From IMG/VR virus record IMGVR_UViG_3300017749_000006: DNA of 64,000 nt; one strand, given 5' to 3'. The notes beneath the pieces were generated by a model. That model saw only the letters and a list, made by a program, of their open reading frames with translations, made no database searches and had not been told where the DNA came from. The stretch is from an uncultured virus (IMG/VR IMGVR_UViG_3300017749_000006). Its lineage: Duplodnaviria; Heunggongvirae; Uroviricota; Caudoviricetes. The position numbers and the translations under genes are program-made. Positions 7,712-60,474 of this stretch are shown here, in pieces. The number at the start of each line of letters is the position of its first letter. Position 1 is the first letter of the stretch.

Positions 7712-8007
7712 GACATACTATAAGCAGTAAAGTAAAAAACAAAGGAACTAAAAACAGGAACAGAAGTCGTATGTTAGATGCGGTAGCAAGATACATAGAA
7801 GAAAACGGGCCGTCTACTGTGTACAGTATATCCGACGGTGCTAGATTTAAGAATGGTAGATTAATAAAAAATAATAACTCATTCAAAAGTACAGTATCTT
7901 TAGCCCTTATATTAAGTCGCGACCCTAGATTTGTTAAGGTTGAAAAATTGACAAGAGAAAATACATATTTGTGGGGTAATGCTTGCGAAGTCATTACGGA
8001 AGATTAA
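7708..8007 (+). CDS. Winged-HTH-like DNA-binding protein
   Basis: YIEENGPSTVYSI...SLALILSRDPRFVKV...YLW pattern. Confidence 0.6.
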   Translation: MRHTISSKVKNKGTKNRNRSRMLDAVARYIEENGPSTVYSISDGARFKNGRLIKNNNSFKSTVSLALILSRDPRFVKVEKLTRENTYLWGNACEVITED

Positions 8008-8026
8008 AATACATGGGGGTTATGGT

Positions 8027-8200
8027 ATGGCTATGATGAAACAAAAGTTGGTAGAAGATTACAATACAGTAAATGACTTCATAATGTACCTAGCAAATCT
8101 AGGTACTGTTGATTTAAACACATGGATTAGGCGTAGTACAGAAGAACAATTAGAGTTACTAAAAGCCTCACAGAATTATTACGGCAAGGTGAGAGAATGA
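8027..8200 (+). CDS. Hypothetical protein
   Basis: ORF track, start adjusted. Confidence 0.5.
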   Translation: MAMMKQKLVEDYNTVNDFIMYLANLGTVDLNTWIRRSTEEQLELLKASQNYYGKVRE

Positions 8201-8454
8201 GTAGGTTTAGATTAGCAAGCGTTAAACACGCGGAGTATGAGATATACAAAGGTATGCTAGTCAATCAAAGAGATGAGCCTATACAAAGAACTATGCAAAA
8301 TATCTTTGATAGAGTAGTACCTAAGAATGATGCAGTAGCATTAAAGAGATGGAATACGGCCATCAAAAATGTCAAACATCAGATGACAAATAAGTTAGAA
8401 AATAGAAGACAGTATTTACCTGTTGGGCATATTGATAGGAGTGAAGAACAATGA
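8197..8454 (+). CDS. Hypothetical protein
   Basis: AGGTGA SD; ATGA coupling. Confidence 0.65.
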   Translation: MSRFRLASVKHAEYEIYKGMLVNQRDEPIQRTMQNIFDRVVPKNDAVALKRWNTAIKNVKHQMTNKLENRRQYLPVGHIDRSEEQ

Positions 8455-8633
8455 GTAAAATAGAGGATAAAGTAATTACAATGATTCAAGAAAGGGCTAT
8501 GACAGGCGAACTAAAGTATGGTACGAATATGGAACGTAGCGATTTATCTATGAAAGAATGGCTCACACACCTTCAAGAAGAATTATTAGATGCGGCAATT
8601 TATGTACAAAAACTCAAGGAATTGATAGGATAG
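8451..8633 (+). CDS. Small MazG-like all-alpha nucleotide pyrophosphatase-type protein
   Basis: G..KYG...R.DL....WL.H.QEE..D...Y motif common in marine viruses. Confidence 0.6.
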   Translation: MSKIEDKVITMIQERAMTGELKYGTNMERSDLSMKEWLTHLQEELLDAAIYVQKLKELIG

Positions 8634-8652
8634 AAACCCTTATTAATACTAA

Positions 8653-8940
8653 ATGGTTGGTGAATATATGGTGAAAAAACACAGAGCAAGAAGACCTATC
8701 GGTGAGATAATGAGGGATAAAAAAGAACCTATGTCGGCTTATGAGATAGCAGAACAAATGATGAATAAGAAAATGAAATTCTATGCTGAAAGACCCAAAA
8801 CAATAGCACAATTATTGAAAGGGGCGAAAGGTATTACAAGGAGTAAAGTATTACGAAAGAGAGAAATTACTTCTACTATAACTACTTTGTATCACATGGA
8901 AGATTACGAAGCATATGAGAGATGGTTACATGACAGATGA
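8653..8940 (+). CDS. Winged-HTH-like protein
   Basis: PMSAYEIAEQM...TIAQLLKG pattern. Confidence 0.55.
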   Translation: MVGEYMVKKHRARRPIGEIMRDKKEPMSAYEIAEQMMNKKMKFYAERPKTIAQLLKGAKGITRSKVLRKREITSTITTLYHMEDYEAYERWLHDR

Positions 8941-9124
8941 AGAACAAATGACAACAGAAGAAATATTGAGGAGAGCGTATAAATGGTTTGGTGTAAAAGC
9001 ACCTACTAACTATACCTTTAAGATAAGAGATGATTATGTAAAAACAATGAAAGCATATGCGGCTTGGGTAAGACAGGACAAGATAACAAACTCTACATGG
9101 TGGGATGAATGGAAAATAAATTGA
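8930..9124 (+). CDS. Hypothetical protein
   Basis: ORF track, start adjusted. Confidence 0.5.
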   Translation: MTDEEQMTTEEILRRAYKWFGVKAPTNYTFKIRDDYVKTMKAYAAWVRQDKITNSTWWDEWKIN

Positions 9125-9858
9125 TAGAAGTTCCTATTAGTAAAATAAAATTAGTAGAGGCAACATCTTTTACTTATGTAGGTGAAGGTAGATACTTGAA
9201 ACAACCTAAAATAGAAATTAAATATAACGATAAAAGTTATTTTATACTTGACAGAAAAGTATGTTATAGTTTGATAAAACAATTTGAGCCTAACATTACT
9301 TGGACAGAATGGGTACAAATACAAAACTTTGAGTTGTCTTTGTTTAAAATATTAGATGATTATTTTACTGAGTATAATAATTATATAATAAAAGTATGGG
9401 TAGAAAAATATAATGAAATACAAATTATATATGACTTTGAAATGGAAGATGTGTCTTTTGGTATTATGAGGCTAAATAACCTCAAGGCTAGTATTATGTA
9501 TATGTCAATAGAAGCGCTGAAGGATTGGGCTTTACATACTGTAAGCGACAAGATAACAATAAGTAAGGGAGATAATACGATAGAGATACAAGAGTATGAA
9601 AAGTTTGTTATTATACGAGCAAGAAAATATGTCGAAAATGGTTTTGTACAAACTATGCCCGCTATAAAAATATTGGGTATTATAGAAACTATTCAATGGT
9701 ATATTGTTTATGAATCTATTATAGAGGCTAAAGAAAGTTTAGAAAAAGCAGATAAAATGCAAACAAGAAATATAGGCAGTATAAAAAATACCGCAAATAT
9801 GAAGACTAAAGAAAAAGATGACATAGAACATGAATGGTTTCTTAATTCTTTTTACTAA
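9109..9858 (+). CDS. Hypothetical protein, 249 aa
   Basis: ORF track. Confidence 0.7.
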   Translation: MENKLIEVPISKIKLVEATSFTYVGEGRYLKQPKIEIKYNDKSYFILDRKVCYSLIKQFEPNITWTEWVQIQNFELSLFKILDDYFTEYNNYIIKVWVEKYNEIQIIYDFEMEDVSFGIMRLNNLKASIMYMSIEALKDWALHTVSDKITISKGDNTIEIQEYEKFVIIRARKYVENGFVQTMPAIKILGIIETIQWYIVYESIIEAKESLEKADKMQTRNIGSIKNTANMKTKEKDDIEHEWFLNSFY

Positions 9859-9888
9859 AAAAAATATAACAAAATTAATTAATGGAGG

Positions 9889-10008
9889 GCAGTAGCACGT
9901 TTTTGATAATTCTTTAATTACTTCAATAGTATTTTAGGTAATAGTTAACTAATCTAAAAACATCTATGAAGAAATAAAAGAATTAAAGAATATTAGAGCA
10001 GTACATCG
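9889..10008 (+). other. AT-rich origin-like element A
   Basis: Two GCAGTAnnnCG boxes (9889, 9998) around an AT-rich core; homologous to the reverse complement of 58822-58944. Confidence 0.6.
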
Positions 10009-10076
10009 TTTTATTATTTCTGTGGTTGCGTGGTCTTACTGAAACAATTAAAAGCGAACAAGTATGAGGTGATAGT

Positions 10077-10460
10077 ATGGCAAGAGGTAGTGGAAGTAAA
10101 CAGTGTGTAGAATTATCATACAGATATTTAGACCAACATGAAAAAAGAGAAGCAAGTACACATGACATAATGTGGTATTTGAACAATAGAAAGGTTACAA
10201 CGGGGTGCAGAAAAACTAAACAGACATGGAGTATTCAACAAGTATCTCAAATACTTAGAAAATCGCCGTACTTTATTAAAATAGGTACTGTAAGAAGTAT
10301 AACACCTTCCGGTAGTTCTTCTACGTGTTGTGTCTATAGATGTGCGGATTTGAAACAAGTGATTGCTAAAAAGTTATCTTACAGTCATAATATTTCTACA
10401 TATAAATCTGTACCGAAATTCGCAAGAGAAGAATATGTAAAGCAGGGGGGAGTATTGTGA
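10077..10460 (+). CDS. Winged-HTH-like protein
   Basis: ASTHDIMWYLN...QVSQILRKSPYFIKIG pattern; GAGGTGA SD. Confidence 0.6.
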   Translation: MARGSGSKQCVELSYRYLDQHEKREASTHDIMWYLNNRKVTTGCRKTKQTWSIQQVSQILRKSPYFIKIGTVRSITPSGSSSTCCVYRCADLKQVIAKKLSYSHNISTYKSVPKFAREEYVKQGGVL

Positions 10461-11266
10461 TAGAGCAAAAATTGGATATAGATATAGTGTGGCTTAACGG
10501 AAGAAGACCAAAAAAAGAGCAGACTCATTTAATAGTATATCATCAAGAAGAACATGGTGCGGCCACTACTATAGCGGGTAAAGCATTAATAGGAGAAAGG
10601 CCGCCTGTTGCTTCTATATATTCTAAGCATCTAAATACTACATCTGTTAATTTTATACCCGTACCTTTTTGGCCGGAGTATAGATTATACGAAACAAGAA
10701 ACAATGACGGTAAAAGATTTTTTGTCTTGAGAATACCTACTGCTTATCCTATTGAGTTAACACAAGATAGGTATGCAAATAAAGATGTGTGGATGCACAC
10801 TTATCCTGTGGTTAGAGACATCGTAATGACTCTTAATGAATTAGGTGTAAATAAAATGTCATATATGACTACAAATCTGTTTGTTTTGCATAAAGACTTT
10901 AAAGAGTATAGTAAAGTTGCACACGGAGAGGTAGTAAGTTACAATTGGTCTACAATGAAAGAAGAAGTTACTACTCATAGTGGAAAATATCAAGAAGATA
11001 GTTTAGAGTTAGATTATATTTTAGCACCGAATGTTTGGATATGGTGTGATGTTTTCTGTAATTTTACTTCTTCCCCCCTAAAATTATCAGAAGTATTATT
11101 AGGAAGTGCTAGTGGAGAATCAGTAGATATGGACACGGCAGACGCACTTTTAAACCATATACTTTTAACATATGACTTGTCGTGTGATGAATCTGCACTA
11201 CAAAGTATAACGGAAAAACTTGTAGATATGGACAACATTAAAAACTTTGGAGGACTTGACATATGA
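10457..11266 (+). CDS. PAC2 (proteasome assembly chaperone)-family protein, divergent
   Basis: Follows the PAC2 pattern: TIAGKALI, ASIYS, P.YRLY, Y.VV..I....ELGV..M, LLG...VD...A..LL..I....L..D...L. Confidence 0.6.
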   Translation: MIEQKLDIDIVWLNGRRPKKEQTHLIVYHQEEHGAATTIAGKALIGERPPVASIYSKHLNTTSVNFIPVPFWPEYRLYETRNNDGKRFFVLRIPTAYPIELTQDRYANKDVWMHTYPVVRDIVMTLNELGVNKMSYMTTNLFVLHKDFKEYSKVAHGEVVSYNWSTMKEEVTTHSGKYQEDSLELDYILAPNVWIWCDVFCNFTSSPLKLSEVLLGSASGESVDMDTADALLNHILLTYDLSCDESALQSITEKLVDMDNIKNFGGLDI

Positions 11267-12567
11267 ATATATTTGACAACATAAAAGACTTTGCTAGAAG
11301 AAACCACTATGTAGATGTAGAGGATAAAGTACCTATATTTATCTGTAGTATTGGAGCGCATATCTTTAATGCTCTTAATAAATGTTCTAGGTGTGACTTT
11401 GACCCCGATAGCCCTTTAGTAGATGAAGAAAATGATTTCTTGATTACCAATTGTGCTTTGAGACATAACAATATGCCCTTCTATACTCCTATGTCACAGT
11501 TACCCGACACACGAATTCATCTAATGCTTCGTGGCCCTAAAGGGTCGGGTAAATCTGTATTGATTATGATGTTCTTAGCGGAAGGTACGGGATTACTACA
11601 TAGTCAGAATGCTGACTTAGGGCAAGGTATGAGAACAATGCTTGGGCCTAACTCCGTTACAGAAGCAGGTATGTTTGGTAGTGTAGACGAAGAAGGTAAT
11701 ATTATGGGCCGACCATTGGCTAGAGATTTGTGTGGTGGCTTCTTAGGATTTGAAGAGTTTTCTTCTATGTCTGATGCGTCTAAAAAAGACCACAGTATGG
11801 ATATGAAAAATCAGTTACTTACTTCCTTAGATAATGGCCGTGTACAGAAAGCCTTGAGAGCAGGATGGGTTAGTTACACTACTAGATATACAGTATGGGC
11901 AGGTACACAACCTGCTAGGTTTGAGTTAGATTCCGGTCTTGACCGTAGATTCTTTATTATAGATATAGAAATGTCACCGCAAAAAGAATTGCTTTACAAA
12001 CAAGCACAACACAAACAATCTAATATGACGGTAGAAGAAAGAACTTCTCTAGCCACATTAAGTATAGAGATTAAACAATGGATACGAGAGAGAATGATGT
12101 TAGCAGTTTCAGAACCGCCTACAGGAATTATTTTTGCCGATGATATTGGTGATTGGATTAATAGGCCGGACATACGTTCTTTTGAGGCTGACTTGTTCAG
12201 AAGATTAGCGATAGGCTATCATATGATGTTGCCAACATATAGAGGAGGGCAACCACTAATGATTACTCTTGACAATACTTTAGAGACTATACTAAATATG
12301 TCACTAGAACAACGTCGTAGAGTTATGGATGCAGATTCAGAACTTATCAGAACTACCTTTTGGATGAAAGACTTACCTAAGTCAGAATTACTCAAGGAGA
12401 TTTCCCGTATGATTACTATGGGAGATTATCAAAGTGCTAAAAGATGGGTAGTAGAAAACTTAGAAGGACAGTCTTGGTATTGTGAGTATGAACCGGAGAC
12501 TTCTAGGCGTGGTAGAAAAGGTATGCTTTGTAGGATAGGGCCAAACGCAAATACTATGGGTGAGTAA
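11263..12567 (+). CDS. MCM-like AAA+ ATPase/helicase lacking the N-terminal domain
   Basis: RIHLMLRGPKGSGKS Walker A, TEAGMFG, EEF Walker B, AGTQP sensor, LDRRF arginine finger. Confidence 0.75.
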   Translation: MNIFDNIKDFARRNHYVDVEDKVPIFICSIGAHIFNALNKCSRCDFDPDSPLVDEENDFLITNCALRHNNMPFYTPMSQLPDTRIHLMLRGPKGSGKSVLIMMFLAEGTGLLHSQNADLGQGMRTMLGPNSVTEAGMFGSVDEEGNIMGRPLARDLCGGFLGFEEFSSMSDASKKDHSMDMKNQLLTSLDNGRVQKALRAGWVSYTTRYTVWAGTQPARFELDSGLDRRFFIIDIEMSPQKELLYKQAQHKQSNMTVEERTSLATLSIEIKQWIRERMMLAVSEPPTGIIFADDIGDWINRPDIRSFEADLFRRLAIGYHMMLPTYRGGQPLMITLDNTLETILNMSLEQRRRVMDADSELIRTTFWMKDLPKSELLKEISRMITMGDYQSAKRWVVENLEGQSWYCEYEPETSRRGRKGMLCRIGPNANTMGE

Positions 12568-12846
12568 ATGGGTAGAAAATCAAAAACGACAAAGGCTTGG
12601 TGGCCCGCAGTAAGAAAATACTTACAGAATAGGAGAGATGATAAACTTCCGTTTGTCACAAGTAATGTTATTATAGCAGAAGCCTACATGATTGGTTCAT
12701 ATGGTAGTGCGGCTCAAGATAAACTATTATGTCAATCAAGAATGTGTCCTACACAAAGAGAATTATCAAGATGGTTGGCAGACCATCCCGATATTATAAG
12801 CGTTAAAAAACAAAGAGTAGAGTGGGGTTTAAAAAATGAAAACTAG
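12568..12846 (+). CDS. Winged-HTH-like protein
   Basis: CPTQRELSRWLADHPDI...VEW pattern. Confidence 0.5.
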   Translation: MGRKSKTTKAWWPAVRKYLQNRRDDKLPFVTSNVIIAEAYMIGSYGSAAQDKLLCQSRMCPTQRELSRWLADHPDIISVKKQRVEWGLKNEN

Positions 12847-13453
12847 ATTTGAAATACAACAAAGATTAAGAAATGAAAACGATATGTTTGCTATGGAAGT
12901 TCTTAGATGGGTTCTTGATGGCGGGTGTGCTTTATGCGACCACAAAAAGAAGAAAGAATTTGAAATAGAATTAAATAACGGTGATACTACTCCCGATTAT
13001 TTAGAGAGTAAATATAGTTGGTCGGAAGGTACAGTAATGAAGCACATGGAGAGTCACGTAGAGTTTGACCCCGAAGAAGCAGAACACGTAGAGGAAGCAA
13101 GAAAACAATCTATAAATACGTTAGATGCGGCAGAAGATATTGTGAATAGAATAGCATCGTACCTAGATGAGTTAGAAGAAAGAAAGGAAGCACACGGCGG
13201 TATCACTTCCGATTTCGTTGCTGATGCGGCTAAGTTAATCGGTCAAGCAAATTCAAGCCTAAAGTTAGTAGGTCAATTGAAGAAAGAGATAGGTGTAGAT
13301 TCTCAATTATTATTAGCACAATCACAAATGAATCATATGTCAAATATACTTGTAGATGTTCTTGGTACTAATCCGCAATTACTAGACCAAATAGAGTTTA
13401 GGATGGCGGCACTTAAAGCACCTGTCACAGTAGATTATGAGGTTATAGAATGA
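12836..13453 (+). CDS. Zn-finger/HTH plus coiled-coil protein (possibly terminase small subunit-like)
   Basis: CALCDH...HMESH motif followed by helical region. Confidence 0.5.
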   Translation: MKTRFEIQQRLRNENDMFAMEVLRWVLDGGCALCDHKKKKEFEIELNNGDTTPDYLESKYSWSEGTVMKHMESHVEFDPEEAEHVEEARKQSINTLDAAEDIVNRIASYLDELEERKEAHGGITSDFVADAAKLIGQANSSLKLVGQLKKEIGVDSQLLLAQSQMNHMSNILVDVLGTNPQLLDQIEFRMAALKAPVTVDYEVIE

Positions 13454-13704
13454 AGAAATGGCGCACAGGTAAAAACGTAAGTCTTTTTGCTAGACCTATC
13501 TATAAAGATGATATGCCTATTCTTATACAAGCCATGATAGATGATGGTTTGATGGGTACTATTGGAGATAGAGGTGTCTTGTGGGAATATAACGGTTATA
13601 GTATTACCCCTAAAGCGGTGCGTGATGCTTGGGGTTTAACTGCTACTCAATATAAACGAATATGTGATTATATTTATGAGCATGACCCTTTCTATACTGT
13701 ATAA
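13450..13704 (+). CDS. Hypothetical protein
   Basis: ATGA coupling. Confidence 0.6.
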   Translation: MKKWRTGKNVSLFARPIYKDDMPILIQAMIDDGLMGTIGDRGVLWEYNGYSITPKAVRDAWGLTATQYKRICDYIYEHDPFYTV

Positions 13705-13748
13705 AGTAAGTATGTTAAAAATCATGGCAAAAAATTTGGAGTGGTTAC

Positions 13749-14414
13749 ATGGGTATTGTGATTTTTACAAAAGACGACTCGCAGTTTTTAGTAGGCGACT
13801 ATGTTATAATGGTTAAAGAAATTGATACCTCTCTTAGTAATCCCGAAGTAAATTATATCTTACGAACAAATAAATTTACAGAAGCAGATGTTATCGCTTG
13901 GCTACCATATATAACCACTAAACTAATTGTATGTATAGATAAAGCACCTAAGATTACTAAAAAGACAGAAGACAATGTAATAATTGATAAGTCACTAAAG
14001 GTTGCTAGTGACCGCAAAAACTTAACTGCTATAACCTCTATAATTAATTGGTCAGATAGATTAAGAGTGTGGAAACAGATACAGACTTTACCTGTTCCCT
14101 ATGCTTTAGTGTTTTTAAAACAGAATGTAAAAGATATAGACACTTGGAGATTAATAGCACAAACTAATATGGAATTGCCCGAAGATTATACAAAGGCTAT
14201 CTTTGCTTATTCTATAACGGGTAAAAGACAGAGTGTGGCTTGGCCTAAGAAGCAAAAAGTTAAAGAGCAAGCACCACCACCTTTCCGCATGGGAGATAAG
14301 TATTGGCAAGAGATTATAACCTCTAAAGAAGTTGGTAATGAAATTAGAGAGCAAGGTATAGATTTACCTAAAGGTATGAAAAAAACAAAACAGAAGGTGA
14401 ATGAATGGGTTTAG
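13749..14414 (+). CDS. Hypothetical protein, possible degenerate RFC large subunit
   Basis: P.....FLKQN and WP..., Lys-rich tail ending in PIP-like QKVNEWV; weak similarity only. Confidence 0.4.
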   Translation: MGIVIFTKDDSQFLVGDYVIMVKEIDTSLSNPEVNYILRTNKFTEADVIAWLPYITTKLIVCIDKAPKITKKTEDNVIIDKSLKVASDRKNLTAITSIINWSDRLRVWKQIQTLPVPYALVFLKQNVKDIDTWRLIAQTNMELPEDYTKAIFAYSITGKRQSVAWPKKQKVKEQAPPPFRMGDKYWQEIITSKEVGNEIREQGIDLPKGMKKTKQKVNEWV

Positions 14415-14596
14415 CCTTCTTATGTAGTATAATATTTATAGTATTATTCGTTAGTTTCTTTATAGGTTTTTTTATTTCTTTTACTGACATATATATTGCT
14501 ATAGAAAATACACCTGCTACTGAACATCTAATCCCTACACAGGAACAACAAGATAATTCTTTTGCTTATACCGCTATGTGGTTAGATATTGATTAA
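14405..14596 (+). CDS. Small membrane protein
   Basis: N-terminal hydrophobic helix; AGGTGA SD. Confidence 0.6.
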   Translation: MGLAFLCSIIFIVLFVSFFIGFFISFTDIYIAIENTPATEHLIPTQEQQDNSFAYTAMWLDID

Positions 14597-14634
14597 TAAA
14601 ACCCTTCATATACTTTTATATATTACCAAGATAT

Positions 14635-15042
14635 ATGAGCGCGAATAACCGCCGCATTCGACGTATCATTGTAGAGATACTTTTTGAGTGTGGACAGATG
14701 ACAAAAGAAGGAATGGCAGATATGTTAGCACAACGTAAAACTGTTCGTACTGTTCCTAGCCCACATAGTTTAGCGGCCCTTATGTCTAAGAATCCACAGA
14801 TAGTAGCGACGGGTTCAGAAGCAGTAGAAAATGCCGTAGGAACTAAGGCTATGCACTTAATTTATGACATAGATAGAGAGTTAATTAAAAATAAAGATGA
14901 TATTACCTACACACGTTCTTTGACAGTTATGACTCCTAGTGAGAAAGCAAAATCTCAAAAATGTTCCTGTAGTAGAACTAGAGTCTTCCCTCCTAATAGT
15001 GATGTCTGTCTACATTGTATAAGAGAACAATCAACATCTTAA
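14635..15042 (+). CDS. Winged-HTH plus C-terminal Zn-finger protein
   Basis: PSPHSLAALMSKNPQIV and CSC...CLHC. Confidence 0.65.
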   Translation: MSANNRRIRRIIVEILFECGQMTKEGMADMLAQRKTVRTVPSPHSLAALMSKNPQIVATGSEAVENAVGTKAMHLIYDIDRELIKNKDDITYTRSLTVMTPSEKAKSQKCSCSRTRVFPPNSDVCLHCIREQSTS

Positions 15043-15083
15043 TAAGCGAATAAGTACGAAAGTAATTTAAGACGCTAAGAGTA

Positions 15084-15443
15084 TTGGTTACTATGGATAC
15101 AGACAGACTTATGTTCCATTTACTACAACAGATGCAAGCATACGGAACAGACCCACTATTAGCAGATATACTGACGGACGAGAATATTAGACAAAGCCAC
15201 CTTGTTAAAGATTGTATTGATTTTTTAACTGACATAGATATTATAGATGATTTTGTAACTAATCCCGAATTAATGATGTCAAGAGCATGGAGTTTAGATT
15301 TAGTTAGAGGTATGGGCTTAGGTGTTTTGATGGCATTAGAAACAGATAATTCTAATCCCGTTGATTTTAAAGCAGAACTAGCAGAAATGTACAAACAATT
15401 AGAATCTTTGAGAATCGAGAAGACCTTTGATTCGCTTGCGTAG
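15084..15443 (+). CDS. Hypothetical protein
   Basis: ORF track. Confidence 0.65.
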   Translation: MVTMDTDRLMFHLLQQMQAYGTDPLLADILTDENIRQSHLVKDCIDFLTDIDIIDDFVTNPELMMSRAWSLDLVRGMGLGVLMALETDNSNPVDFKAELAEMYKQLESLRIEKTFDSLA

Positions 15444-15456
15444 TCATTACATTATC

Positions 15457-15474
15457 TTTATATTCTTAGAAGTA
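15457..15474 (+). promoter_or_regulatory. TATA promoter of the TTTATA-N5-AGAAGTA class
   Basis: TTTATATTCTTAGAAGTA matches 16588, 19536 and 23906. Confidence 0.55.
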
Positions 15475-15486
15475 AGCCTTTAATTT

Positions 15487-15693
15487 GTGAGCGAGGCGAG
15501 GATAGATAAACAGGTGCTATCCCCAAACCGTAACCGATATGCACAGATAGATGTAGAGCCGTTGATGAAGGAAGGAGTAAAGACACGAAGATTAAGAGTC
15601 TCACGTTCTGATAAACAAGCCAAGAGTCATAGATGCAGAACCGTTCTGATAATACATAGAGCATTAACAAGTCGGATAAGCCAAACGTTCACA
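15487..15693 (+). ncRNA. Candidate structured RNA (or long leader) upstream of RFC
   Basis: Closing stem GTGAGCG/CGTTCAC plus several internal stems; starts 30 nt after the TATA box. Confidence 0.45.
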
Positions 15694-15709
15694 CCTATGA
15701 GGAATTAAA

Positions 15710-16582
15710 ATGAGTAAAGTATGGGCATTAAAACATAGACCATCTATAGATGATATAGTTGGTCAAGATGATATTATAAATGCTATAGGTAATGGGATGC
15801 AACATATGGTATTCTATAGTCCACAAGCAGGTACAGGTAAAACAAGTTTGGCTCATGCTCTAGCAAAGAGACATGGTAGTACCTTACATATCTTTAACGC
15901 TAGTAGTAAAAAGACTAGAGGTATAGAGTTTGTAGAAGAAGAACTTATGCCTATGTCAAGAACAGGTAATTGGAAGCAAATATTTTTATTAGACGAGGCA
16001 GACCAATTAACACCTGCCGCACAATCAGCACTAAAAGGTGTGATAGAAAACGCACACGGTTGGTTTATTCTAACTTGTAATGATTTGTCTAAAGTAAGTA
16101 TATGGTTACAATCAAGATGTAGAGTTCTTAAGTTCAACCCTATTAGTGAAGAACATATGAAACAAAGATTAATTACTATAGCGGGTAAAGAAGGCGTAGA
16201 GATAACACCTAATCATTTAGCCTTAATAATTAATAACCATAGAGGAGATTTACGAAATGCAATCAACGCATTACAGGCATATCATAATTCTCAAGACAAA
16301 CATTCCTTTGTACATTCATTAGAGAACGAGAAGTTTGATGTCCAACAATTCTTAACACTTTGTTTTAGAGAAAAAGATTTTGAAGAGTCATTAAAACTAC
16401 TAGACAAAGATAACAAAAGGGAGAGTATTAGAGCAGTATTCCGTTTTGCTATGGAGTCAAATGCTAAACCCCCAAGTAAATTAAAGGTTATAGAAGCCGC
16501 CGTCACATCCGAAAGGGATTTTATTATGGGTGTTGACGAAGATATTATACTCTCTAATTTTGTTTTAATGTGTATAAGGTAA
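15710..16582 (+). CDS. rfcS: Replication factor C small subunit (clamp loader)
   Basis: WALKHRP, GQ, GTGKTS, NAS..RGI, LDEAD, AQ.AL, SRC motif, GDLRNAINALQ. Confidence 0.92.
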   Translation: MSKVWALKHRPSIDDIVGQDDIINAIGNGMQHMVFYSPQAGTGKTSLAHALAKRHGSTLHIFNASSKKTRGIEFVEEELMPMSRTGNWKQIFLLDEADQLTPAAQSALKGVIENAHGWFILTCNDLSKVSIWLQSRCRVLKFNPISEEHMKQRLITIAGKEGVEITPNHLALIINNHRGDLRNAINALQAYHNSQDKHSFVHSLENEKFDVQQFLTLCFREKDFEESLKLLDKDNKRESIRAVFRFAMESNAKPPSKLKVIEAAVTSERDFIMGVDEDIILSNFVLMCIR

Positions 16583-16587
16583 TAATC

Positions 16588-16605
16588 TTTATAAGCAAAG
16601 AAGTA
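16588..16605 (+). promoter_or_regulatory. TATA promoter TTTATAAGCAAAGAAGTA
   Basis: Identical 18-mer at 19536. Confidence 0.65.
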
Positions 16606-16641
16606 AGACGAGAGGATATAGAAAACCAAAAGGTGATTGAA

Positions 16642-17838
16642 ATGATAGATGAAAAAATAATACAAAGAACTGCTAATACGCTGAATATAGATATAAACAC
16701 TCTCAAGAGTAGGACAGATGAAATCCTGTTGGCTCAAGGAGAGGCATGGAAAAATGCAGGTAAATCAGAACAAGATTGTTATGCCCTAGCATTAAAGGTA
16801 GCCGGTAGTAAAATTAAAAATGAAAACTCAAGACTACTACGTTCCGGTGCTTCTAAATTAGAAGGTATGTTTATATCAGTACCACGCCCTAAAGAATGGG
16901 GTAAGATACTATACAATAAAATGAAGAGTCAAATGATTAGTGCGTCAGAAGAAGTACGTCAACAATTTGTAGACAATGGAAAGATTGTACTATACAATGA
17001 TAATGGTGATGGAACTTATACTAGATATGCTAGAGAAGATTTCTTCGGTGAAGATACTACTAATGTAAATGAACTAGACAAGAACGCTATGCGTCTTGAT
17101 GGTGACTCTTACTTCTACTGTGTATGGGATAGTAACAACCCTACTTTCCCTAGTGGAGATAGAAACTTTAAATTCGGTAATGCAAGACCACAAAACGAAC
17201 AAGAAAGAACATCTATGTTCTTAGGTCGTGTAGAAGGTTCTAGTGATGAAGTAAAGATGATGACTGTAACCGCACAAGGTAAAGCGGCAGATATGCAATA
17301 CCCAACATTCACCCCTTTGACTATGGCTCTACGTGTCGGTAAAGACGGTAAGAAATGCTACGTTAAAGCAGATATGGCTAACTATACCGCAGATGCTAGT
17401 AAAGCAGAAATCTTTTCAGCCGCACCTATCATGGCTGACGGTACAGGGTTAGTACCTTCTCTGTTAGGTTCAGAAAATATGTTGTCATCATTAGATGCTC
17501 TACGTGATTACTATGACCAATTCAACGGCCAAGCCGGTTGGTGGGATAGAATAGTAGGTGTAATAGGTGAAGTAATTCATATAGACCCTAGAGATAACGG
17601 TGGTTATACTCTTGTGTGTGCTGATTTAGATATAGCATCAGTAGCACCTGTAGTAGAAGTATACGTTCCATCAGAACATGGTAGTAGAGTAGACTTTGCA
17701 GTAGGTACTAAGATATTATTAGTCGGTCAAACATGGAGAACAAGAGATACAGATGAACAAAAATTATCTGTAAACGGTTGGTATCCTTTTGACGAAGTAG
17801 AGGCTATGGAAACTGTAGACGCAGAAGGGTGGGATTAA
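16642..17838 (+). CDS. Probable ssDNA-binding (RPA/OB-fold) protein
   Basis: OB-like C-terminal strands, acidic tail ending EGWD, position in replication cluster; AGGTGA SD supports start 16642. Confidence 0.55.
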   Translation: MIDEKIIQRTANTLNIDINTLKSRTDEILLAQGEAWKNAGKSEQDCYALALKVAGSKIKNENSRLLRSGASKLEGMFISVPRPKEWGKILYNKMKSQMISASEEVRQQFVDNGKIVLYNDNGDGTYTRYAREDFFGEDTTNVNELDKNAMRLDGDSYFYCVWDSNNPTFPSGDRNFKFGNARPQNEQERTSMFLGRVEGSSDEVKMMTVTAQGKAADMQYPTFTPLTMALRVGKDGKKCYVKADMANYTADASKAEIFSAAPIMADGTGLVPSLLGSENMLSSLDALRDYYDQFNGQAGWWDRIVGVIGEVIHIDPRDNGGYTLVCADLDIASVAPVVEVYVPSEHGSRVDFAVGTKILLVGQTWRTRDTDEQKLSVNGWYPFDEVEAMETVDAEGWD

Positions 17839-18050
17839 TGCAAGCGTTGGGCAACAATGTTATTGTTGAACCAACCCCACAGTCTGATAGCGGCTTAATC
17901 ATAAATACATCTTACTCCGTTCTATCAATAGGTTCTCTAGTTCCTACACAAATAAGTGTAGGTTCTAGGGTTCTTATTGAATCAGATAGTTTAAAGACAG
18001 AAGGTATTACTAAGTATTGTAAATTCTCAGATATTATAGCGGTGATATAA
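17838..18050 (+). CDS. groES: GroES-like co-chaperonin, 70 aa
   Basis: ALGNNVIVEP, SGLII, V.SIG, VG.RV, DIIAVI; adjacent to groEL. Confidence 0.8.
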   Translation: MQALGNNVIVEPTPQSDSGLIINTSYSVLSIGSLVPTQISVGSRVLIESDSLKTEGITKYCKFSDIIAVI

Positions 18051-19556
18051 ATGAAAACATTAATAACAGGTAAAGAAGCAAGTAACAAATTACTACAAGG
18101 AGTAAACAAAGTAGCCAATGCGGTTAAAGGAACTCTAGGGCCAAACGCCCGAACTGTAATTATACAAAGAGAAGATACTTTCCCCCTTATATTAAATGAT
18201 GGAGTTACTATTGCTAAAGCAGTAAATGACCCCGACCCCTATGTACAAATGGGTATAGATTTAATTAAGGAAGTGGCATCACAAGCACAACATAAGTCCG
18301 GTGATGGTACTACTACTGCTACATTATTAGCGCAAGCCCTATGTAATATAGGGTATGATGCTATCCATAGAGGAGAAGATGCAGTAGGTTTAACTAACGC
18401 TATAAAAGAAGAGGCTGAAATTATCATAGATAAATTATTAGAAGAAGCAATTCCTGTTACTGATGACAAAGATATGTTAAAGAATGTTGCTATCATAGCA
18501 TCTAACAACGATGAAGACTTAGGTAATCTGATAGCAGAAGTTATGGACAAAGTAGGTTCGGAAGGTGCAATAGCAGTAGAGGCCGGTAGTGGTTTCGATA
18601 CTATATATAATATAGAATCCGGTCTTGAAGTACAGTCGGGTGCAGTTAGCCCTTACTTTACACAGAATTTAGTAAACTCTAATGTTTTATTAACAAGTGA
18701 CAGGTTAGATAACTTTGAAAGTTTAGTACCTGCTCTTGAACTTTCTATGAAAGCGGGTAGAGGACTAATGATTTTCTGCTCTGACTATAATCCTGCTATG
18801 TTACCTAATATACTTATTAATGTAGTACAAGGAAAGATAAGTGCCTGTATTGTAAAGACGGCAGGTATGGGTCAAGGACAACAAGATTGGTTACAGGATA
18901 TACAATCAGTGACAGGTGGACATATGTTTTCTAAGATTTTAGGTGATAATATTTTAGAGGTTAAAGAAAATCAATTAGGTTTTGTACTAAAAGCAGATTG
19001 TACTAAAGATACTACTATGTTGCTTACCGAAAAAGATACTAGGGATGAAAAACATATTGATAAATTATATCAACAATTAGATGATAGTGACAATAATTGG
19101 GAAAAGCAGACACTTACCCGTAGGATTGCACGATTAACTGACGGTGTTGCATCCATTAAAGTAGGTGCTAATACAGAAATAGAATTACGAGAGCGTAAAG
19201 AAAGAATAGATGATGCAGTAAACGCAGTTAGGGCCGCACAAAGAAACGGAGTAATTGCAGGTGGTGGTGTGTTACTTAGACATTTTGGAGAACAAAGTTC
19301 TTTAGAGATTATAAAAGAAGCATTTGTTATGCCCGAAGAAACATTACTAGATAATGCAGGGATAATGCAGTATCCTAAAATACAATACGATGAAGATGCT
19401 GACTTAGGTTTTGACATGAAAGAAAAAGGAGTCTATGACCCTGTTGATGTCACTATAAATTCTATAAGAAGTGCGGTATCTATAGCGGTATTAGTATTAT
19501 TATCAGATGCGTTAGTAGGTCTACCTGCTGACAAGTTTATAAGCAAAGAAGTATGA
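18051..19556 (+). CDS. groEL: Group I chaperonin GroEL
   Basis: AVKGTLGP, NDGVTIAK, GDGTTTAT, ERIDDAVNAVRAA, GGG, GVYDP. Confidence 0.95.
   Translation: MKTLITGKEASNKLLQGVNKVANAVKGTLGPNARTVIIQREDTFPLILNDGVTIAKAVNDPDPYVQMGIDLIKEVASQAQHKSGDGTTTATLLAQALCNIGYDAIHRGEDAVGLTNAIKEEAEIIIDKLLEEAIPVTDDKDMLKNVAIIASNNDEDLGNLIAEVMDKVGSEGAIAVEAGSGFDTIYNIESGLEVQSGAVSPYFTQNLVNSNVLLTSDRLDNFESLVPALELSMKAGRGLMIFCSDYNPAMLPNILINVVQGKISACIVKTAGMGQGQQDWLQDIQSVTGGHMFSKILGDNILEVKENQLGFVLKADCTKDTTMLLTEKDTRDEKHIDKLYQQLDDSDNNWEKQTLTRRIARLTDGVASIKVGANTEIELRERKERIDDAVNAVRAAQRNGVIAGGGVLLRHFGEQSSLEIIKEAFVMPEETLLDNAGIMQYPKIQYDEDADLGFDMKEKGVYDPVDVTINSIRSAVSIAVLVLLSDALVGLPADKFISKEV
19536..19553 (+). promoter_or_regulatory. TATA promoter, leaderless start at 19566
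   Basis: TTTATAAGCAAAGAAGTA begins 30 nt before the ATG. Confidence 0.65.
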
Positions 19557-19565
19557 GGGAATAAT

Positions 19566-20537: not shown

Positions 20538-21360
20538 TTGTGATACTCTTAGGATTCTCTTGGAGAAAGTCAGAAGACCGCAAACTATAGCGGGTAAACA
20601 ACAAGACCAAATACATTCTTGTATTCTGACACCCGAACATAATAAAGTAAAGGTTGTTTCTTTAGTTAAGGATGGTGTAACTTCTTTAAACAGATTTACT
20701 TGTTTCGCTACTTGTAAAGTAGGCGATAAAGAAATACCAATTACTAACATTAAAGATTTTCTAGGAATATTAAAGTATCACGGCGGTTCACTATCGTTGT
20801 CTTCGGTAGGTGATAAAGTAAAGATTAAATCTAAAAGTAAACAAACTACTATTACGGGCTCTACTAAGGCTACTGCTTATCCTCATAATCCTGCTACACT
20901 AATGGAATGGACTACTAAATCTTTGGCAATATCACGCTCCTTTGTTAAGGACGATAGTGGTTATAATTATGTCTCCAAAACAAATGAGACAATAAAACCT
21001 TTCTTTAAACATATGACAGATGGAAACACTTTGTTTGAGGCTCTACGTTGCGATTCAATGAATGGTCAAAAATTTAACCGTTATACTTTTATTTTTAGTA
21101 GTAGCGGCTTTTCTGTAAAAACAGGTAAAGAATTAAAGGGTCAAACAATATACAAACTACAAAGTAATACTACTTATACCGAAGATGACTATACACAAGA
21201 ATGGGAGGCTACCTTTGAAGGAGGTCTTGAAAATTTATTTAGTCATATGAATGGTTCTGTCACACTCTATTTTTATCAGTTCCCCGAACAAGGGATTAAG
21301 ATGCTGATAGATTTAGGGTCAGAAGATTATGTCTTCCAAGCAAGTATAATAGGTGAATAA
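20524..21360 (+). CDS. Probable divergent PCNA-like sliding clamp
   Basis: Size ~278 aa, alternating beta/alpha pattern, context between RFC and PolB; no strong sequence motif. Confidence 0.5.
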   Translation: MITIDCDTLRILLEKVRRPQTIAGKQQDQIHSCILTPEHNKVKVVSLVKDGVTSLNRFTCFATCKVGDKEIPITNIKDFLGILKYHGGSLSLSSVGDKVKIKSKSKQTTITGSTKATAYPHNPATLMEWTTKSLAISRSFVKDDSGYNYVSKTNETIKPFFKHMTDGNTLFEALRCDSMNGQKFNRYTFIFSSSGFSVKTGKELKGQTIYKLQSNTTYTEDDYTQEWEATFEGGLENLFSHMNGSVTLYFYQFPEQGIKMLIDLGSEDYVFQASIIGE

Positions 21361-21685: not shown

Positions 21686-21687
21686 GT

Positions 21688-23904: not shown

Positions 23905-23935
23905 GTTTATAACCTAAGAAGTATGATGTAAAGTT

Positions 23936-26423: not shown

Positions 26424-26457
26424 ACCTTTTATATAGGCTTTATAGTTACCAACAATT

Positions 26458-57355: not shown

Positions 57356-58741
57356 TCAATCTTGTGCAACATCGGATGCACCGTCTTGGCTATTTTCTCT
57401 AGGAAGGTTTGTGGGTTTAGGTGCTTCTATATTTTTTCTTTCATCTCCATCTTTAGCGGGAGGTAGATTTAGCATATCTAAACTTTGATTTAATGTTAGA
57501 AGACCCGCTTCATACCCCATAGTTACTCTCTGCATAACATTTAGTGGGGTAGCACTATCCATTGTATCAAATTCTATTTTAGGTAAATCTGCTTTTTTAT
57601 GTTCTATACCAAGTAAAGTAAGATGTAAAGAAAATAATTGAGCGCAAGTTTGTTCTAAAACTCGGTGCATACGGCTAATTGCTTGTACGGCCCACATATT
57701 AGCGTTAAATGTTGCCGCAAACGTAGAACCTTTTTCTTGACCGGATGCTACTCTTGGAACTTGTAGAACTGCGGCAATATCAGCATTGATACTATCTAAA
57801 AAGTCACTACTATTAGGAAGTGCATTTTCTAAATCAACGTGATGTATTTGTACATAATGAGGAAGTACAGGCATTTGGTCGCCTCTTAACCCTTCAAACA
57901 AAGATATAACTTCTGACATAATATTCTGTAAACGGTCATGTTGTTCAGCAGGGTCTATTATATGCTCTATAGCAGATTTATCAATAGTAATATATTGTTT
58001 AGTCATACTGTCTTCAAGAGCAATACGATTATTCATAGAGTTATACTTCATACGAATTGCTTGCTTAAGAGCAGAAAAACGGGAAGCACCCCATACCCCA
58101 AAAGTGTGACGACCCTTATTATCTACAAACCAATTACTTCTATAGTCTACTTTAATATGTAATATCTCATCTACAGATATTGCTTTTTCATATGGACTTG
58201 CCTCACGTAACATATATGTAACAGGCTCTATGACAGGGTTTTCTCGGTTTGCTACAAAGTAAGAGCCTAGTCCGCCTCTACTATCTACTATATTTATTTG
58301 TACTATAGGTAAATTTTGCAGTTTAGTTATACCTACTCCTGCTTTTCCTACTATCTTATTAATATCATTACCGTATACCATAAGGTTTCTCATAGCATTA
58401 ATCATAATGTCATCAAAATCAAGAGTTTCATCTACTAAGTCTTTTATAGCATTTCTAATAGCGCCATTTTTAGCCTTGTCATAATTAATTTCAAAATTGT
58501 TGGCAGTTAATGATACTGCACGTACCGCACCATTAAGTTCGGGGTCAAGTTTTAGCATAAGGTCATACATGTCAAATTCGTTATCATAATTACTATCTTT
58601 ATTCAATCTTTCCGTATCACGAACTAAATCGGGTATGCCCGCTACCATCTTTAAACTTTTATTTGATGGTACTCTTGTGGCTTTGGCCGGCACTTCTTTA
58701 TTTCTGCCGAACATTCTATCCACTAAACTCCTCTCCGCCAT
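57356..58741 (-). CDS. Portal protein
   Basis: 461 aa; D...NGAV, LMVYGN, EILHI, WG.S, I.AVL.VP; first gene of the head module. Confidence 0.85.
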   Translation of the reverse strand: MAERSLVDRMFGRNKEVPAKATRVPSNKSLKMVAGIPDLVRDTERLNKDSNYDNEFDMYDLMLKLDPELNGAVRAVSLTANNFEINYDKAKNGAIRNAIKDLVDETLDFDDIMINAMRNLMVYGNDINKIVGKAGVGITKLQNLPIVQINIVDSRGGLGSYFVANRENPVIEPVTYMLREASPYEKAISVDEILHIKVDYRSNWFVDNKGRHTFGVWGASRFSALKQAIRMKYNSMNNRIALEDSMTKQYITIDKSAIEHIIDPAEQHDRLQNIMSEVISLFEGLRGDQMPVLPHYVQIHHVDLENALPNSSDFLDSINADIAAVLQVPRVASGQEKGSTFAATFNANMWAVQAISRMHRVLEQTCAQLFSLHLTLLGIEHKKADLPKIEFDTMDSATPLNVMQRVTMGYEAGLLTLNQSLDMLNLPPAKDGDERKNIEAPKPTNLPRENSQDGASDVAQD

Positions 58742-58821
58742 AGTATTAAAACATATAGGTGTTCCATAAACCTTTCTGTTTATTCTTTTTGTTGTTTTTT
58801 CGTTTTTTAAAAAGAATTAAT

Positions 58822-58944
58822 CGTTATACTGCGCCTTTTTTCGTTAATTCTTTTATTTCTTCTATTATGTTTGAAAATTTTAAAGGGGGGTTTCTAAAAA
58901 ATACTATTGAATTAATTAAAGAATTAATATAATCGTTATACTGC
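58822..58944 (-). other. AT-rich origin-like element B (inverted homolog of 9889-10008)
   Basis: Two GCAGTATAACG boxes on the minus strand; blocks of 28/29 and 19/19 identity to element A. Confidence 0.6.
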
Positions 58945-59034
58945 GTAGTATTAATTCTTTTTGTGGTATAAAAATCTACAAAATTAATTCATGAAAACAC
59001 AATGTTTATAGGGAATGGGTGCTTGGTTTATTGC

Positions 59035-60474
59035 ATGGGGAAGGCTACAACACGACAGATGTGGGCAAAACTTGAGCAATATATAAAGGAACATAACTTT
59101 AAATCTGATATGGATTTTGCTAGGTTTTTAAATGAGACAGAAAAAGACTCTAATAGAGGAGTGCAAGCATGGAGGGGAGTAGTGCAAAGATGGAGATATG
59201 CAAATCCACAGATACACTATAATACATGGAGTAAAGATACTTCAGATACTAAAATGGTTAATCATTATTTTGATGAAAAAGCAGATAAGTATGTATTTCA
59301 TATAAATAAAGAGATGACGGTAGTAACGGGAGAAACACACAGGGCTATGAAAAGAGCGTATAGTAGTACAGGCGGTGGTTTGACAATAGAACAAATGGCT
59401 CAAAAATTTAAGTTATCTCCTAGTTTTATAGCGGCGTATGTCAAAGTTAATTCTTGGAGTCATGCTATGGATGCTTTTACCGATGAAGAAGTACGAAAAC
59501 AAACAGAAGAAGAGTTAGTAGCAGATGCTATTAGAATTAAAAGACAAAGTGTACAAGAAAAGGTACATAAAAAATATTGGGCTGATATGCGTAAAACCGC
59601 AGAAAAACTTATCCATATAGAACACGAATGGGGTAATGAGTTTAAGGAAATTATTTCCAAAGAAAATCTTGCTCCTAAAAAAATTAAACACACTAAAATG
59701 GCTAAAACCAAATCATACGCCGTTGTCTTGTCTCCTACAGACTTACATTATGGTAAGGGTTCTTGGATTGATGAAACAGGTGAGTCTTATACATTAGAAG
59801 AAGCACGTTTTAGACTTCTTGACAGAACTGAAAATTTAATCAGTAGATTAGCAGGTAGACCCGAAAAAATTATTATTGCTACAGGTAGTGATTGGTTTCA
59901 CGTAGATAACGAACAGGGTACTACTACGGCAGGTACACCACAAGATTTAGCGGCTTCCCCTGCACAAATTCTTGTAGATGGTTGTAAATTAGCAAGAGAG
60001 CATATAGATATGCTACGAACAGTAGCGCCTATAGAAGTAGTATTTATGCGTGGTAATCATGATAGACATACTGCTTTAGCACTTATGTTATACCTAGATG
60101 CGGCATATGAAAACACAAAAGATGTTACAATAACTGTTAGCCCTAAACTTCGACAATATATTAAGTGGGGTAATAATTTACTAGGCTTTACACACGGAGA
60201 TGGTGTAAGAGGTAACGACCTTCCTGCTATTATGGCAACAGAAGAAAGAGAAGGTTGGGGTAAACATGAACACCACGTTTGGTTTCATGGGCATTTACAT
60301 CACCAACGTTTATTAGAAACTAGCGGAGTTACAATAATACAGTTACCTAGTTTAGCGGGTCATGATAGATACCATTACAGAAAAGGTTTTGTTTTGGCTA
60401 GAGCAGGTATATCTGCCCATTTAATAGATAAAGAATTAGGTTTAGTAGGTAATTTGTTTGCTCCGGTGATATAA
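59035..60474 (+). CDS. Calcineurin-like metallophosphoesterase with N-terminal HTH-like region
   Basis: DLHYG, GSDWFH, GNHD, THGD, GHLHH; TTTATAGG 30 nt upstream. Confidence 0.85.
   Translation: MGKATTRQMWAKLEQYIKEHNFKSDMDFARFLNETEKDSNRGVQAWRGVVQRWRYANPQIHYNTWSKDTSDTKMVNHYFDEKADKYVFHINKEMTVVTGETHRAMKRAYSSTGGGLTIEQMAQKFKLSPSFIAAYVKVNSWSHAMDAFTDEEVRKQTEEELVADAIRIKRQSVQEKVHKKYWADMRKTAEKLIHIEHEWGNEFKEIISKENLAPKKIKHTKMAKTKSYAVVLSPTDLHYGKGSWIDETGESYTLEEARFRLLDRTENLISRLAGRPEKIIIATGSDWFHVDNEQGTTTAGTPQDLAASPAQILVDGCKLAREHIDMLRTVAPIEVVFMRGNHDRHTALALMLYLDAAYENTKDVTITVSPKLRQYIKWGNNLLGFTHGDGVRGNDLPAIMATEEREGWGKHEHHVWFHGHLHHQRLLETSGVTIIQLPSLAGHDRYHYRKGFVLARAGISAHLIDKELGLVGNLFAPVI

Follow-up and report, generated by a model that had tools for sequence, protein, structure and literature searches.

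The window analysed here is a 64,000-nucleotide (nt) stretch of DNA from an uncultured virus (IMG/VR record IMGVR_UViG_3300017749_000006), and it carries, in inverted orientation, two copies of an intergenic element: copy A, with its boxes at 9889-10008 (+), and copy B, with its boxes at 58822-58944 (-). By sequence, copies A and B belong to a conserved family of imperfect-palindrome intergenic elements, copy A to its A-type and copy B to its B-type. We propose, tentatively and with confidence a little short of even, that the elements are transcription control regions at operon heads, bound by a viral DNA-binding protein. We lean to this reading because of the polarity and spacing of the elements, their place at the heads of the major operons, and the adjacent gene for a putative DNA-binding protein. 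The anatomy of the elements, their conservation, the co-variation of the palindrome, and its polarity and spacing are observations, and they are given first.

The two copies in the window

How alike are the two copies? When 9850-10050 (+) is aligned pairwise with the reverse complement of 58780-58985, the mean column identity is 80%, and in a repeat search the pair makes up the two longest inverted repeats of the window (I1, 72 nt, 78%; I2, 69 nt, 74%). Each copy has two boxes of the pattern GCAGTAnnnCG, spaced 109 nt apart in copy A and 112 nt apart in copy B. The pattern has six matches in the window against 0.62 expected, and 0/100 shuffles reach six; the element sites are 9889, 9998, 58822(-) and 58934(-), and two more matches are at 16433 and 62901. 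Seven nt past box 1 is a 29-mer, TAATTCTTTAATTAnTTCAATAGTATTTT, which at three or fewer mismatches has exactly two matches in the window, at 9907-9935 (+) and 58898-58926 (-), with 0.00 expected, and 11 nt ahead of box 2 is GAAGAAATAAAAGAATTAA, 19/19 identical at 9968-9986 (+) and 58844-58862 (-). The match statistics of the box, the 29-mer and the 19-mer rule out chance as the cause of the pair. An earlier, sequence-only reading of the window had described these twin inverted elements; they are real, with identity and statistics far beyond chance, and the boxes, the two spacings, the 7-nt and 11-nt offsets, the 29-mer and the identical 19-mer are all as it claimed.

The 10-mer TTAATTCTTT has eight exact matches in the window, six of which are inside the two element regions, and copy B consists of two direct 43-nt units, AAAGAATTAA - box - TTAATTCTTT, lying 107 nt apart. 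Copy A is situated between the stop codon of open reading frame (ORF) 9109-9858 and the ATG at 10077. Copy B, on the - strand, separates the ATG of portal, at 58741, from that of the divergent exonuclease gene, at 59002. The parts of the two copies are as follows.

9842..9851 (+): copy A, outer 10-mer TTAATTCTTT, exact match; overlaps the end of the coding sequence of ORF 9109-9858
9889..9899 (+): copy A, box 1 GCAGTAGCACG; direct orientation in the window's lineage
9907..9935 (+): copy A, left arm, the conserved 29-mer; 10-14% G+C; the right arm is its partner in the family palindrome
9936..9961 (+): copy A, variable core, from the alignment
9962..9986 (+): copy A, right arm; includes GAAGAAATAAAAGAATTAA at 9968-9986
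9998..10008 (+): copy A, box 2 GCAGTACATCG; sense toward the downstream gene
10009..10022 (+): copy A, T-rich outer flank TTTTATTATTTCTG, a degenerate outer 10-mer
10046..10053 (+): copy A, TATA-like AATTAAAA, 24-31 nt before ATG 10077; putative core promoter
58951..58960 (-): copy B, outer 10-mer, AAAGAATTAA on the - strand, exact match
58934..58944 (-): copy B, box 1 GCAGTATAACG, pattern match
58898..58926 (-): copy B, left arm, 29-mer, pattern match
58863..58897 (-): copy B, variable core; includes a C6 run
58844..58862 (-): copy B, right arm GAAGAAATAAAAGAATTAA, 19/19
58822..58832 (-): copy B, box 2 GCAGTATAACG, 91 nt ahead of the portal ATG
58809..58821 (-): copy B, outer flank ATTAATTCTTTTT
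58764..58770 (-): copy B, putative TATA-like TTTATGG, 23-29 nt before portal ATG 58741
58967..58974 (+): putative TATA-like TATAAAAA ahead of the divergent gene at 59002

A search of the window with an nhmmer profile of the family recovers copies A and B and no third full copy; the palindromic form of the element makes each of the two score on the other strand as well. The window is part of a genome, and the copy count covers the window and the 5.5 kb beyond its right end, where a 99.8%-identical contig searched with two profiles (E up to 10) holds no third copy. The box-2 context of copy A recurs as ATTAGAGCAGTAnnnCGTTTT at 16427-16447 (+), inside the clamp-loader gene and 137 nt before the next gene start, and this box-2-like site may be a chance match or an internal site.

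A palindrome with co-varying arms

The element forms an imperfect palindrome from end to end, and its two arms co-vary. In an alignment of 44 distinct sequences (A2), column i pairs with column 199-i across 64 positions. The fraction of paired cells is 66.1%, versus 42-48% for partners slid 1-3 columns away; the pairing was defined from the same alignments as the counts, which biases them toward pairing, and the slide control answers this in part. The covariation score is 0.159, versus 0.081-0.111 when slid, and 0/500 shuffles reach 0.159, a count that is not a probability because the aligned sequences are related. A second alignment, of 56 A-type sequences (A4), gives a weaker repeat of the result, with 60.8% paired versus 41-52% slid, and covariation of 0.143 versus 0.069-0.117.

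At what level might such a palindrome act? The sequences are predicted to fold more stably than their dinucleotide shuffles (mean z of -2.85 and -2.26, DNA parameters), and RNAalifold predicts no pairs on the 44-sequence alignment. The sense strand is the more stable one in 34/56 and 17/44 sequences, so that neither strand is favoured, and on the palindrome A:C mismatches extend about as widely as G:T. This symmetry of the strands, in fold stability and in A:C versus G:T, argues for function at the DNA rather than the RNA level.

Box 1 reads GCAGTA in some lineages, its complement TACTGC in others, and the palindrome GCAGTACTGC in one. Box 2 is never flipped across lineages, and always has its sense orientation toward the downstream gene. 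In the window the two boxes run the same way; in many relatives they are inverted. The sequence-only reading had the arms flanking a variable, AT-rich core, and pointed to archaeal origins, in which initiator boxes flank an AT-rich unwinding element. The core does vary, from 20 to 68 nt across the family, but it is not the AT-rich part: it averages 38% G+C versus 19-20% in the arms, is the more G+C-rich in 41/44 family members, and in the window copies has 22% and 31% G+C versus 10-19% in the arms. This speaks against a plain AT-rich unwinding core flanked by boxes. In 28/44 A2 members the core contains an apical hairpin, AGTTnnnGTAnnnAACT, with a 7-bp stem and a GTA loop (A2 columns 115-131; examples are L059:863-1070 and L080:2155-2341). 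The inner three pairs of this hairpin vary freely with complementarity kept; the hairpin is absent from both window copies. A-type copies share ACGCTTGCG just past box 2 (A4 columns about 188-197), and B-type copies are without it; the window version is GGTTGCGTGG, at 10024-10033 (+).

A family at fixed genomic places

Exact-pattern scans of IMG/VR found both near-identical and diverged copies of the element, which is 150-200 nt long across the family. Portal relatives numbered 198, and the flank survey took in 80 loci whose portal proteins are 70-100% identical. The element is upstream of the portal gene, in the same place, in 76/80 of these, and each of the four loci without it has less than 300 nt of upstream flank. 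A survey of 80 loci was likewise made for the cluster that follows copy A, which encodes a winged helix-turn-helix (wHTH)-like protein, a 269-amino acid (aa) protein and a 434-aa MCM-like protein. Flank of at least 1400 nt is available in 70 loci, and in 65 of them the element is upstream of the cluster; the five MCM-like loci without it are the most divergent ones, at 59-63% identity. The distance from the element to the 434-aa gene is 865-1589 nt in 63 loci and about 445 nt in two divergent loci. The conservation of the pair in relatives, on which the earlier proposals had been staked, is thus found at both places.

Three complete relatives share a gene map: G002 (71 kb), with copies A and B; G004 (69 kb), with A, B and a third copy, C; and G005 (72 kb, with terminal repeats), which also has A, B and C. 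Copies A and B are on opposite strands in the window and in all three complete relatives, each directed toward one of two convergent modules. Is the likeness of the twins then a matter of recent duplication? The copies group by position, A with A, B with B and C with C, rather than by genome, and orthologous copies are more alike than are the two copies of one genome. This position-wise clustering leads us to reject recent duplication or gene conversion, and the likeness of the twins is therefore taken to reflect a shared constraint.

Gapped-pattern matches in cellular genomes numbered seven, all without the full element and none with viral flanking genes; nhmmer covered the pattern stretch only, in 4/7, and the seven are treated as chance. 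A term search of PMC5434244 and PMC11706807 turned up no mention of the element, and neither did the listing of a full-text literature search.

Polarity, spacing and promoters

Between the element and each flanking start codon there is a TATA-like box, about 24-31 nt short of the codon. On the portal side a TTATAA-like motif is found at this offset across 53 distinct sequences, and the TATA-like motif ahead of the A-type start codon keeps its offset in relatives. This places the element upstream of the putative core promoters, and not inside them. Box 2 and its T-rich flank face the downstream gene in every case, and each copy aims at the first gene of a long operon.

Conservation is poor in the stretch that separates box 2 from the TATA-like box; the length from box to ATG is held. 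From box 2 to the portal ATG the distance is 89-92 nt in 40/53 distinct sequences and 99-101 nt in the other 13/53. The A-type distance from box 2 to ATG is 76-80 nt in 26/55 and 86-89 nt in 14/55, and in the rest of the 55 it is 49-61 (nine sequences), 71-72 (three), 84 (one) or 92-93 nt (two). On the other side of copy B, box 1 is 90-92 nt from the exonuclease ATG in 16 of 43 sequences, 84-85 in six, 79-81 in seven, 46-64 in 13, and 24 nt in one. Roughly 10 nt, or about one turn of the helix, separates the main spacing classes, and this is mirrored on both sides of copy B. Length steps of about 10 nt are what the geometry of a regulator and its promoter predicts, if these spacings are read aright, and an origin needs no such steps.

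The element is thus promoter-proximal, with fixed polarity and spacing to the start codon. The sequence-only reading held that its proposals would fall if RNA data showed the elements to be only promoters or terminators; polarity and spacing do tie the element to promoters, which goes part of the way toward that outcome. A 36-nt pre-gene motif, TTTATAAGCAAAGAAGTATGAGG...ATG, occurs at 10044-10079, 16585-16620, 19533-19568 and 23903-23938 (+), with 75-81% identity to the copy at 19533. It ends at the ATG at three of the four sites (10077, 19566 and 23936), and the fourth, 16585-16620, is just inside the 16570 ORF. From its sequence the motif looks like a shared TATA-like box plus a ribosome-binding stretch.

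Gene context

Genes in the window are on the + strand between about 1.9 and 27.2 kb; those between 27.2 and 58.7 kb are on the - strand and read leftward, and from 59.0 kb onward the + strand is used once more. The operon that copy A faces is the replication operon, 10077 to 27183 (+). Ahead of copy B is the structural operon, 58741 to 27174 (-), and on its divergent side are the exonuclease and terminase genes. Pfam identifies a portal protein (weakly), a terminase, PolB and a thermosome-like chaperonin, and PHROGs a clamp loader, an exonuclease and an Mre11/SbcD-like exonuclease. Behind copy A come the wHTH-like, 269-aa and MCM-fold genes, then the clamp loader, PolB and an exonuclease. The earlier placement of copy A at the head of the replication module is upheld, as is that of copy B at the divergence of portal and exonuclease-terminase genes. 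The genes nearest the elements are these.

10077..10460 (+): probable winged-helix DNA-binding protein, 127 aa, first gene after copy A; weak signals
11263..12567 (+): MCM-fold AAA+ ATPase, 434 aa, third gene after copy A; from an AlphaFold2 (AF2) model and Foldseek
57356..58741 (-): portal gene, headed by copy B; Pfam Phage_portal at E 8e-9, below the curated cut-off
59002..60474 (+): Mre11/SbcD-like DNA repair exonuclease, divergent from portal; PHROG 704, E 7e-62
60590-62098 (+): terminase, after the exonuclease gene; Terminase_6C

The placement of the exonuclease gene between portal and terminase is kept in 74/80 related loci.

The 127-aa protein had been called a wHTH protein. Signals of a winged helix are present but weak, and the window protein itself has no Pfam match. 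The Atlas points to DUF3860 wHTH clusters (0.89-0.90, a lead only), and DUF3860 is the only Pfam family found among the positional orthologues, in 10/38, one of them above the cut-off. A profile of the family has weak PDB matches (E 0.13-0.23) to small proteins, some of which are named Z-DNA-binding domains, and which we take to be winged-helix folds. On these signals the first gene probably encodes a winged-helix DNA-binding protein.

Walker-type motifs are present in the 434-aa protein, which is smaller than the MCMs of cells and has no Pfam or PDB match at the level of sequence. Its AF2 model has a predicted local distance difference test score (pLDDT) of 93.1 with a 113-sequence alignment, versus 36 with five close sequences, and in a Foldseek search of the PDB all the matches listed, through rank 41, are MCM chains (E about 1e-8, TMq 0.39-0.48). 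Judged by its model, then, the protein is of MCM fold. Intein or homing-endonuclease domains are carried by 9/16 of the distant homologues scanned, and there is no relative in the GenBank phage collection. The 269-aa protein has hypothetical relatives only. The nearest named relatives of PolB are in Halorubrum tailed viruses, at 23-25% identity, and the window has no tRNAs.

Two giant ORFs, 27174-35162 (-) and 44229-51896 (-), encode 2662 and 2555 aa and are probably tail or adhesin proteins; the 2555-aa ORF holds the internal repeat families D1, D2 and D7, and relatives carry differently sized genes in its stead. What kind of virus is this? Magroviruses, of Marine Group II archaea, combine a head-tail module with PolB, a clamp loader, MCM and a chaperonin in genomes of 65-100 kb, according to PMC5434244. 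The window has a portal, terminase, PolB, chaperonin, clamp loader and MCM-fold protein, and its complete relatives are 69-72 kb. Its predicted gene content fits that of the magroviruses and would make it a head-tailed virus of archaeal type.

An early-region repeat motif

A different motif marks the early region. CTACTACAAAT has 24 window matches at one or no mismatch versus 3.2 expected, and 22 of these are at 63-1630 and 63588-63844; some of the sites form a perfect palindrome, CTACTACAAATTTGTAGTAG. Three tandem sites at 63765-63844 are spaced 34-35 nt apart, and a near-identical contig extends these iterons 5.5 kb past the right end of the window. In G004 and G005 the motif fills about 7 kb. 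Pairs or triplets of it are directly upstream of several small early ORFs in G004, where copy C is inside the region. From this distribution, CTACTACAAAT may be an early promoter or operator motif, or an iteron-type origin.

What do the elements do?

Under the control reading, the elements would act as double-stranded DNA upstream of the TATA-like box and the first gene of an operon. Each element would be formed by GCAGTA boxes bracketed by inverted TTAATTCTTT/AAAGAATTAA 10-mers, and a virus-encoded DNA-binding protein would bind these sites, switching the replication and structural operons together. The best candidate for the binder would be the winged-helix-like protein whose gene comes first after copy A; regulators are commonly encoded next to their own operators. 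Small early genes would use the separate motif CTACTACAAAT, and the different motif at these other operon heads is counted toward the control reading. The binding of a protein, the identity of that protein and its effect on transcription are what we infer here. Operator or upstream-activating arrays of viral and archaeal regulators offer a parallel, with repeated operators before several operons and the regulator gene alongside. As in such arrays, one cis-element is present at several operon heads, with fixed polarity and spacing to the TATA-like box and ATG and with inverted half-sites, and a small winged-helix-like gene is directly downstream of one copy. Unlike them, the element is 150-200 bp, is palindromic throughout with compensatory changes, and is about 80-90 nt from the start codon.

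Several points weigh against transcription control. The palindrome, at 150-200 bp with co-varying arms, far exceeds the usual size of an archaeal operator, and control explains poorly why a palindrome of that length with compensatory changes should be needed. The compensated small hairpin of the relatives argues for base pairing, in a cruciform or single strand, and not for plain recognition by a protein. The left half of A-type copies is as conserved as that of B-type copies, despite there being no divergent promoter there. One control element shared by replication and structural operons would be unusual in a temporally ordered viral programme. The A-type and exonuclease-side distances depend on start codons that were partly called mechanically, and the spacing classes may stem from a few inherited insertions or deletions rather than from many independent events. 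Finally, copy A adjoins the gene of the MCM-fold helicase, which would fit an origin as well.

Could the elements then be replication origins? The sequence-only reading thought so, and we consider it possible, if doubtful, that they are origins, two to three per genome, at which the palindrome extrudes or melts. The boxes and the phased TTC/GAA 10-mers would bind a viral initiator, the wHTH-like protein or the 269-aa protein or both, and the MCM-fold helicase would be loaded; forks would run co-directionally with transcription of the two convergent operons, and promoter control may coexist, as origin and promoter control do in polyoma- and herpesviruses. It speaks for origins that copy A heads the cassette of wHTH-like, 269-aa and MCM-fold genes, with clamp loader, PolB and exonuclease genes behind it; that the element is palindromic, with repeated boxes and very AT-rich arms (19-20% G+C); that several copies are found per genome at conserved places; and that the co-variation of the arms and the compensated hairpin in relatives imply selected base pairing. 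Copy B also coincides with the minimum of cumulative GC skew, near 58.5-59 kb. However, the skew changes sign only at 27 kb and 58.9 kb, both of them coding-strand switches, with no change of sign at copy A, and is confounded with the direction of transcription; because it tracks the coding strand it lends no independent support to an origin. AT skew falls from about 0.22 to about 0.07 across copy A (8001-12000) where GC skew keeps its sign, a drop that may only reflect the composition of early versus replication genes. The centre of the element is its least AT-rich part and varies from 20 to 68 nt. No Orc1/Cdc6 gene was called in Pfam and PHROGs scans of 12 + 17 + 4 window proteins, where the MCM-fold protein gives the only ORC trace, a match of 12 bits to an ORC-CDC6-like P-loop that is below threshold. 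Spacing locked in length, and a fixed polarity to start codons, are not needed by an origin; the separate iteron-rich region of several kb is an alternative candidate for one; and three origins exceed the need of a genome of about 70 kb.

Comparison with known origins leads in both directions. Palindromic viral origins between divergent promoters are found in herpes simplex virus (HSV; oriS and oriL) and in the core origins of polyomaviruses, where origin and promoter functions overlap. The element resembles them in its imperfect palindrome, its repeated boxes, its divergent genes and its several copies, some inverted. It differs in having unrelated sequences and proteins, a centre that is not as AT-rich as the arms and is variable in length, and a box 1 whose orientation changes between lineages. 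Archaeal chromosomal origins have inverted origin recognition boxes (ORB or mini-ORB) around an AT-rich unwinding element, next to orc1/cdc6. The element likewise has repeated boxes flanking an AT-rich stretch beside replication genes, among them that of the MCM-fold helicase; but Orc1/Cdc6 is missing among the scanned proteins, the boxes of the window are GCAGTAnnnCG, which the sequence-only reading judged not to resemble ORB, and direct rather than inverted, and the whole interval is a co-varying palindrome. Hairpin signals in DNA are a further parallel, for example the early promoters of phage N4 and the single-strand origins or priming sites of plasmids and phages. The compensated 7-bp stem and 3-nt loop of the relatives, and the better-than-shuffled predicted folding of the family, are reminiscent of these; the window copies however lack the small hairpin, there is no strand preference, and neither a virion RNA polymerase nor a rolling-circle protein was identified among the scanned proteins.

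Three other explanations seem to us improbable to differing degrees. A structured non-coding RNA gene, forming a long hairpin of about 150-200 nt, or a promoter-associated RNA running through the palindrome, would account for the stable predicted folds, for arm co-variation with many G:T positions on the sense strand, and for the T-runs after box 2, and is given little credence here: stability has no strand preference (34/56 and 17/44), A:C is about as widespread as G:T, RNAalifold finds no consensus structure, and no dedicated promoter is evident. No Rfam family matches either, Rfam 15 giving 0 matches in the window at the gathering score and 0 at E up to 1 in 10 element loci, and the flipping of box 1 between lineages would break an RNA helix with box 2. 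We would also be surprised if the element were a selfish or structural palindromic repeat, of the kind of a miniature inverted-repeat transposable element, or an insulator or terminator with no specific trans-acting partner. It is a multi-copy palindrome with several T-runs on the sense strand, and the upstream stop codon abuts the A-type element (0-4 nt in G002 and G005), overlapping it by 24 nt in G004 versus a gap of about 13 nt in the window. But the copies are at the same orthologous places in viruses down to about 60-70% protein identity, and cluster by position and not by genome, so they have not been recently mobile. A terminator is rejected, as copy B is between divergent genes with nothing to terminate; a scan for consensus terminators found none inside copy A.

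The sequence-only reading also raised sites for recombination, and inversion of the 49-kb segment between the copies by a site-specific system is the explanation to which we assign the least probability. Copies A and B are indeed mutually inverted, in the window and in all three complete relatives, and the 127-aa protein has a weak, sub-threshold match to Pfam Recombinase (E 0.028). Yet the flanks are constant: the exonuclease is upstream in 74/80 portal loci, and the copy-A flank gene in none of them; upstream hits were obtained for 67 of 80 MCM-like loci, and exonuclease or terminase is there in none, so that 0/74 and 0/67 are rearranged, as counted in assemblies, which can hide minor isoforms. 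No recombinase or integrase family scores above threshold in the Pfam and PHROGs scans of the scanned proteins. Some genomes have three copies, and an inversion would merely exchange two elements ahead of the same genes. The inversion proposal is therefore not supported. A packaging site was considered too, and rejected, since copies A and C are far from terminase.

What would the elements mean for these viruses? Magrovirus-like viruses are abundant in the surface ocean and uncultured, and we know of no experimental work on where their replication starts or on the timing of their gene expression. A combined scheme, in which the palindromes are origins that double as operon switches and the small winged-helix protein, having recognised GCAGTA boxes and phased 10-mers on an extrudable palindrome, loads the minimal MCM of the virus, with forks running co-directionally with the two convergent operons, strikes us as unlikely; if true, it would give the first defined origins, and Orc-independent MCM loading, in abundant uncultured marine archaeal viruses, and the virus would be a multi-origin replicon, with two to three origins. 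With transcription control, our preferred reading, or with any other, there is now a conserved cis-target, present in 141 related loci or more and at two to three set positions in each genome, and there are candidate partners, the winged-helix-like protein and the minimal MCM, that can be expressed and tested without a host. Under any reading the element marks the heads of the replication and structural operons, and can aid in the annotation of fragmentary viral contigs.

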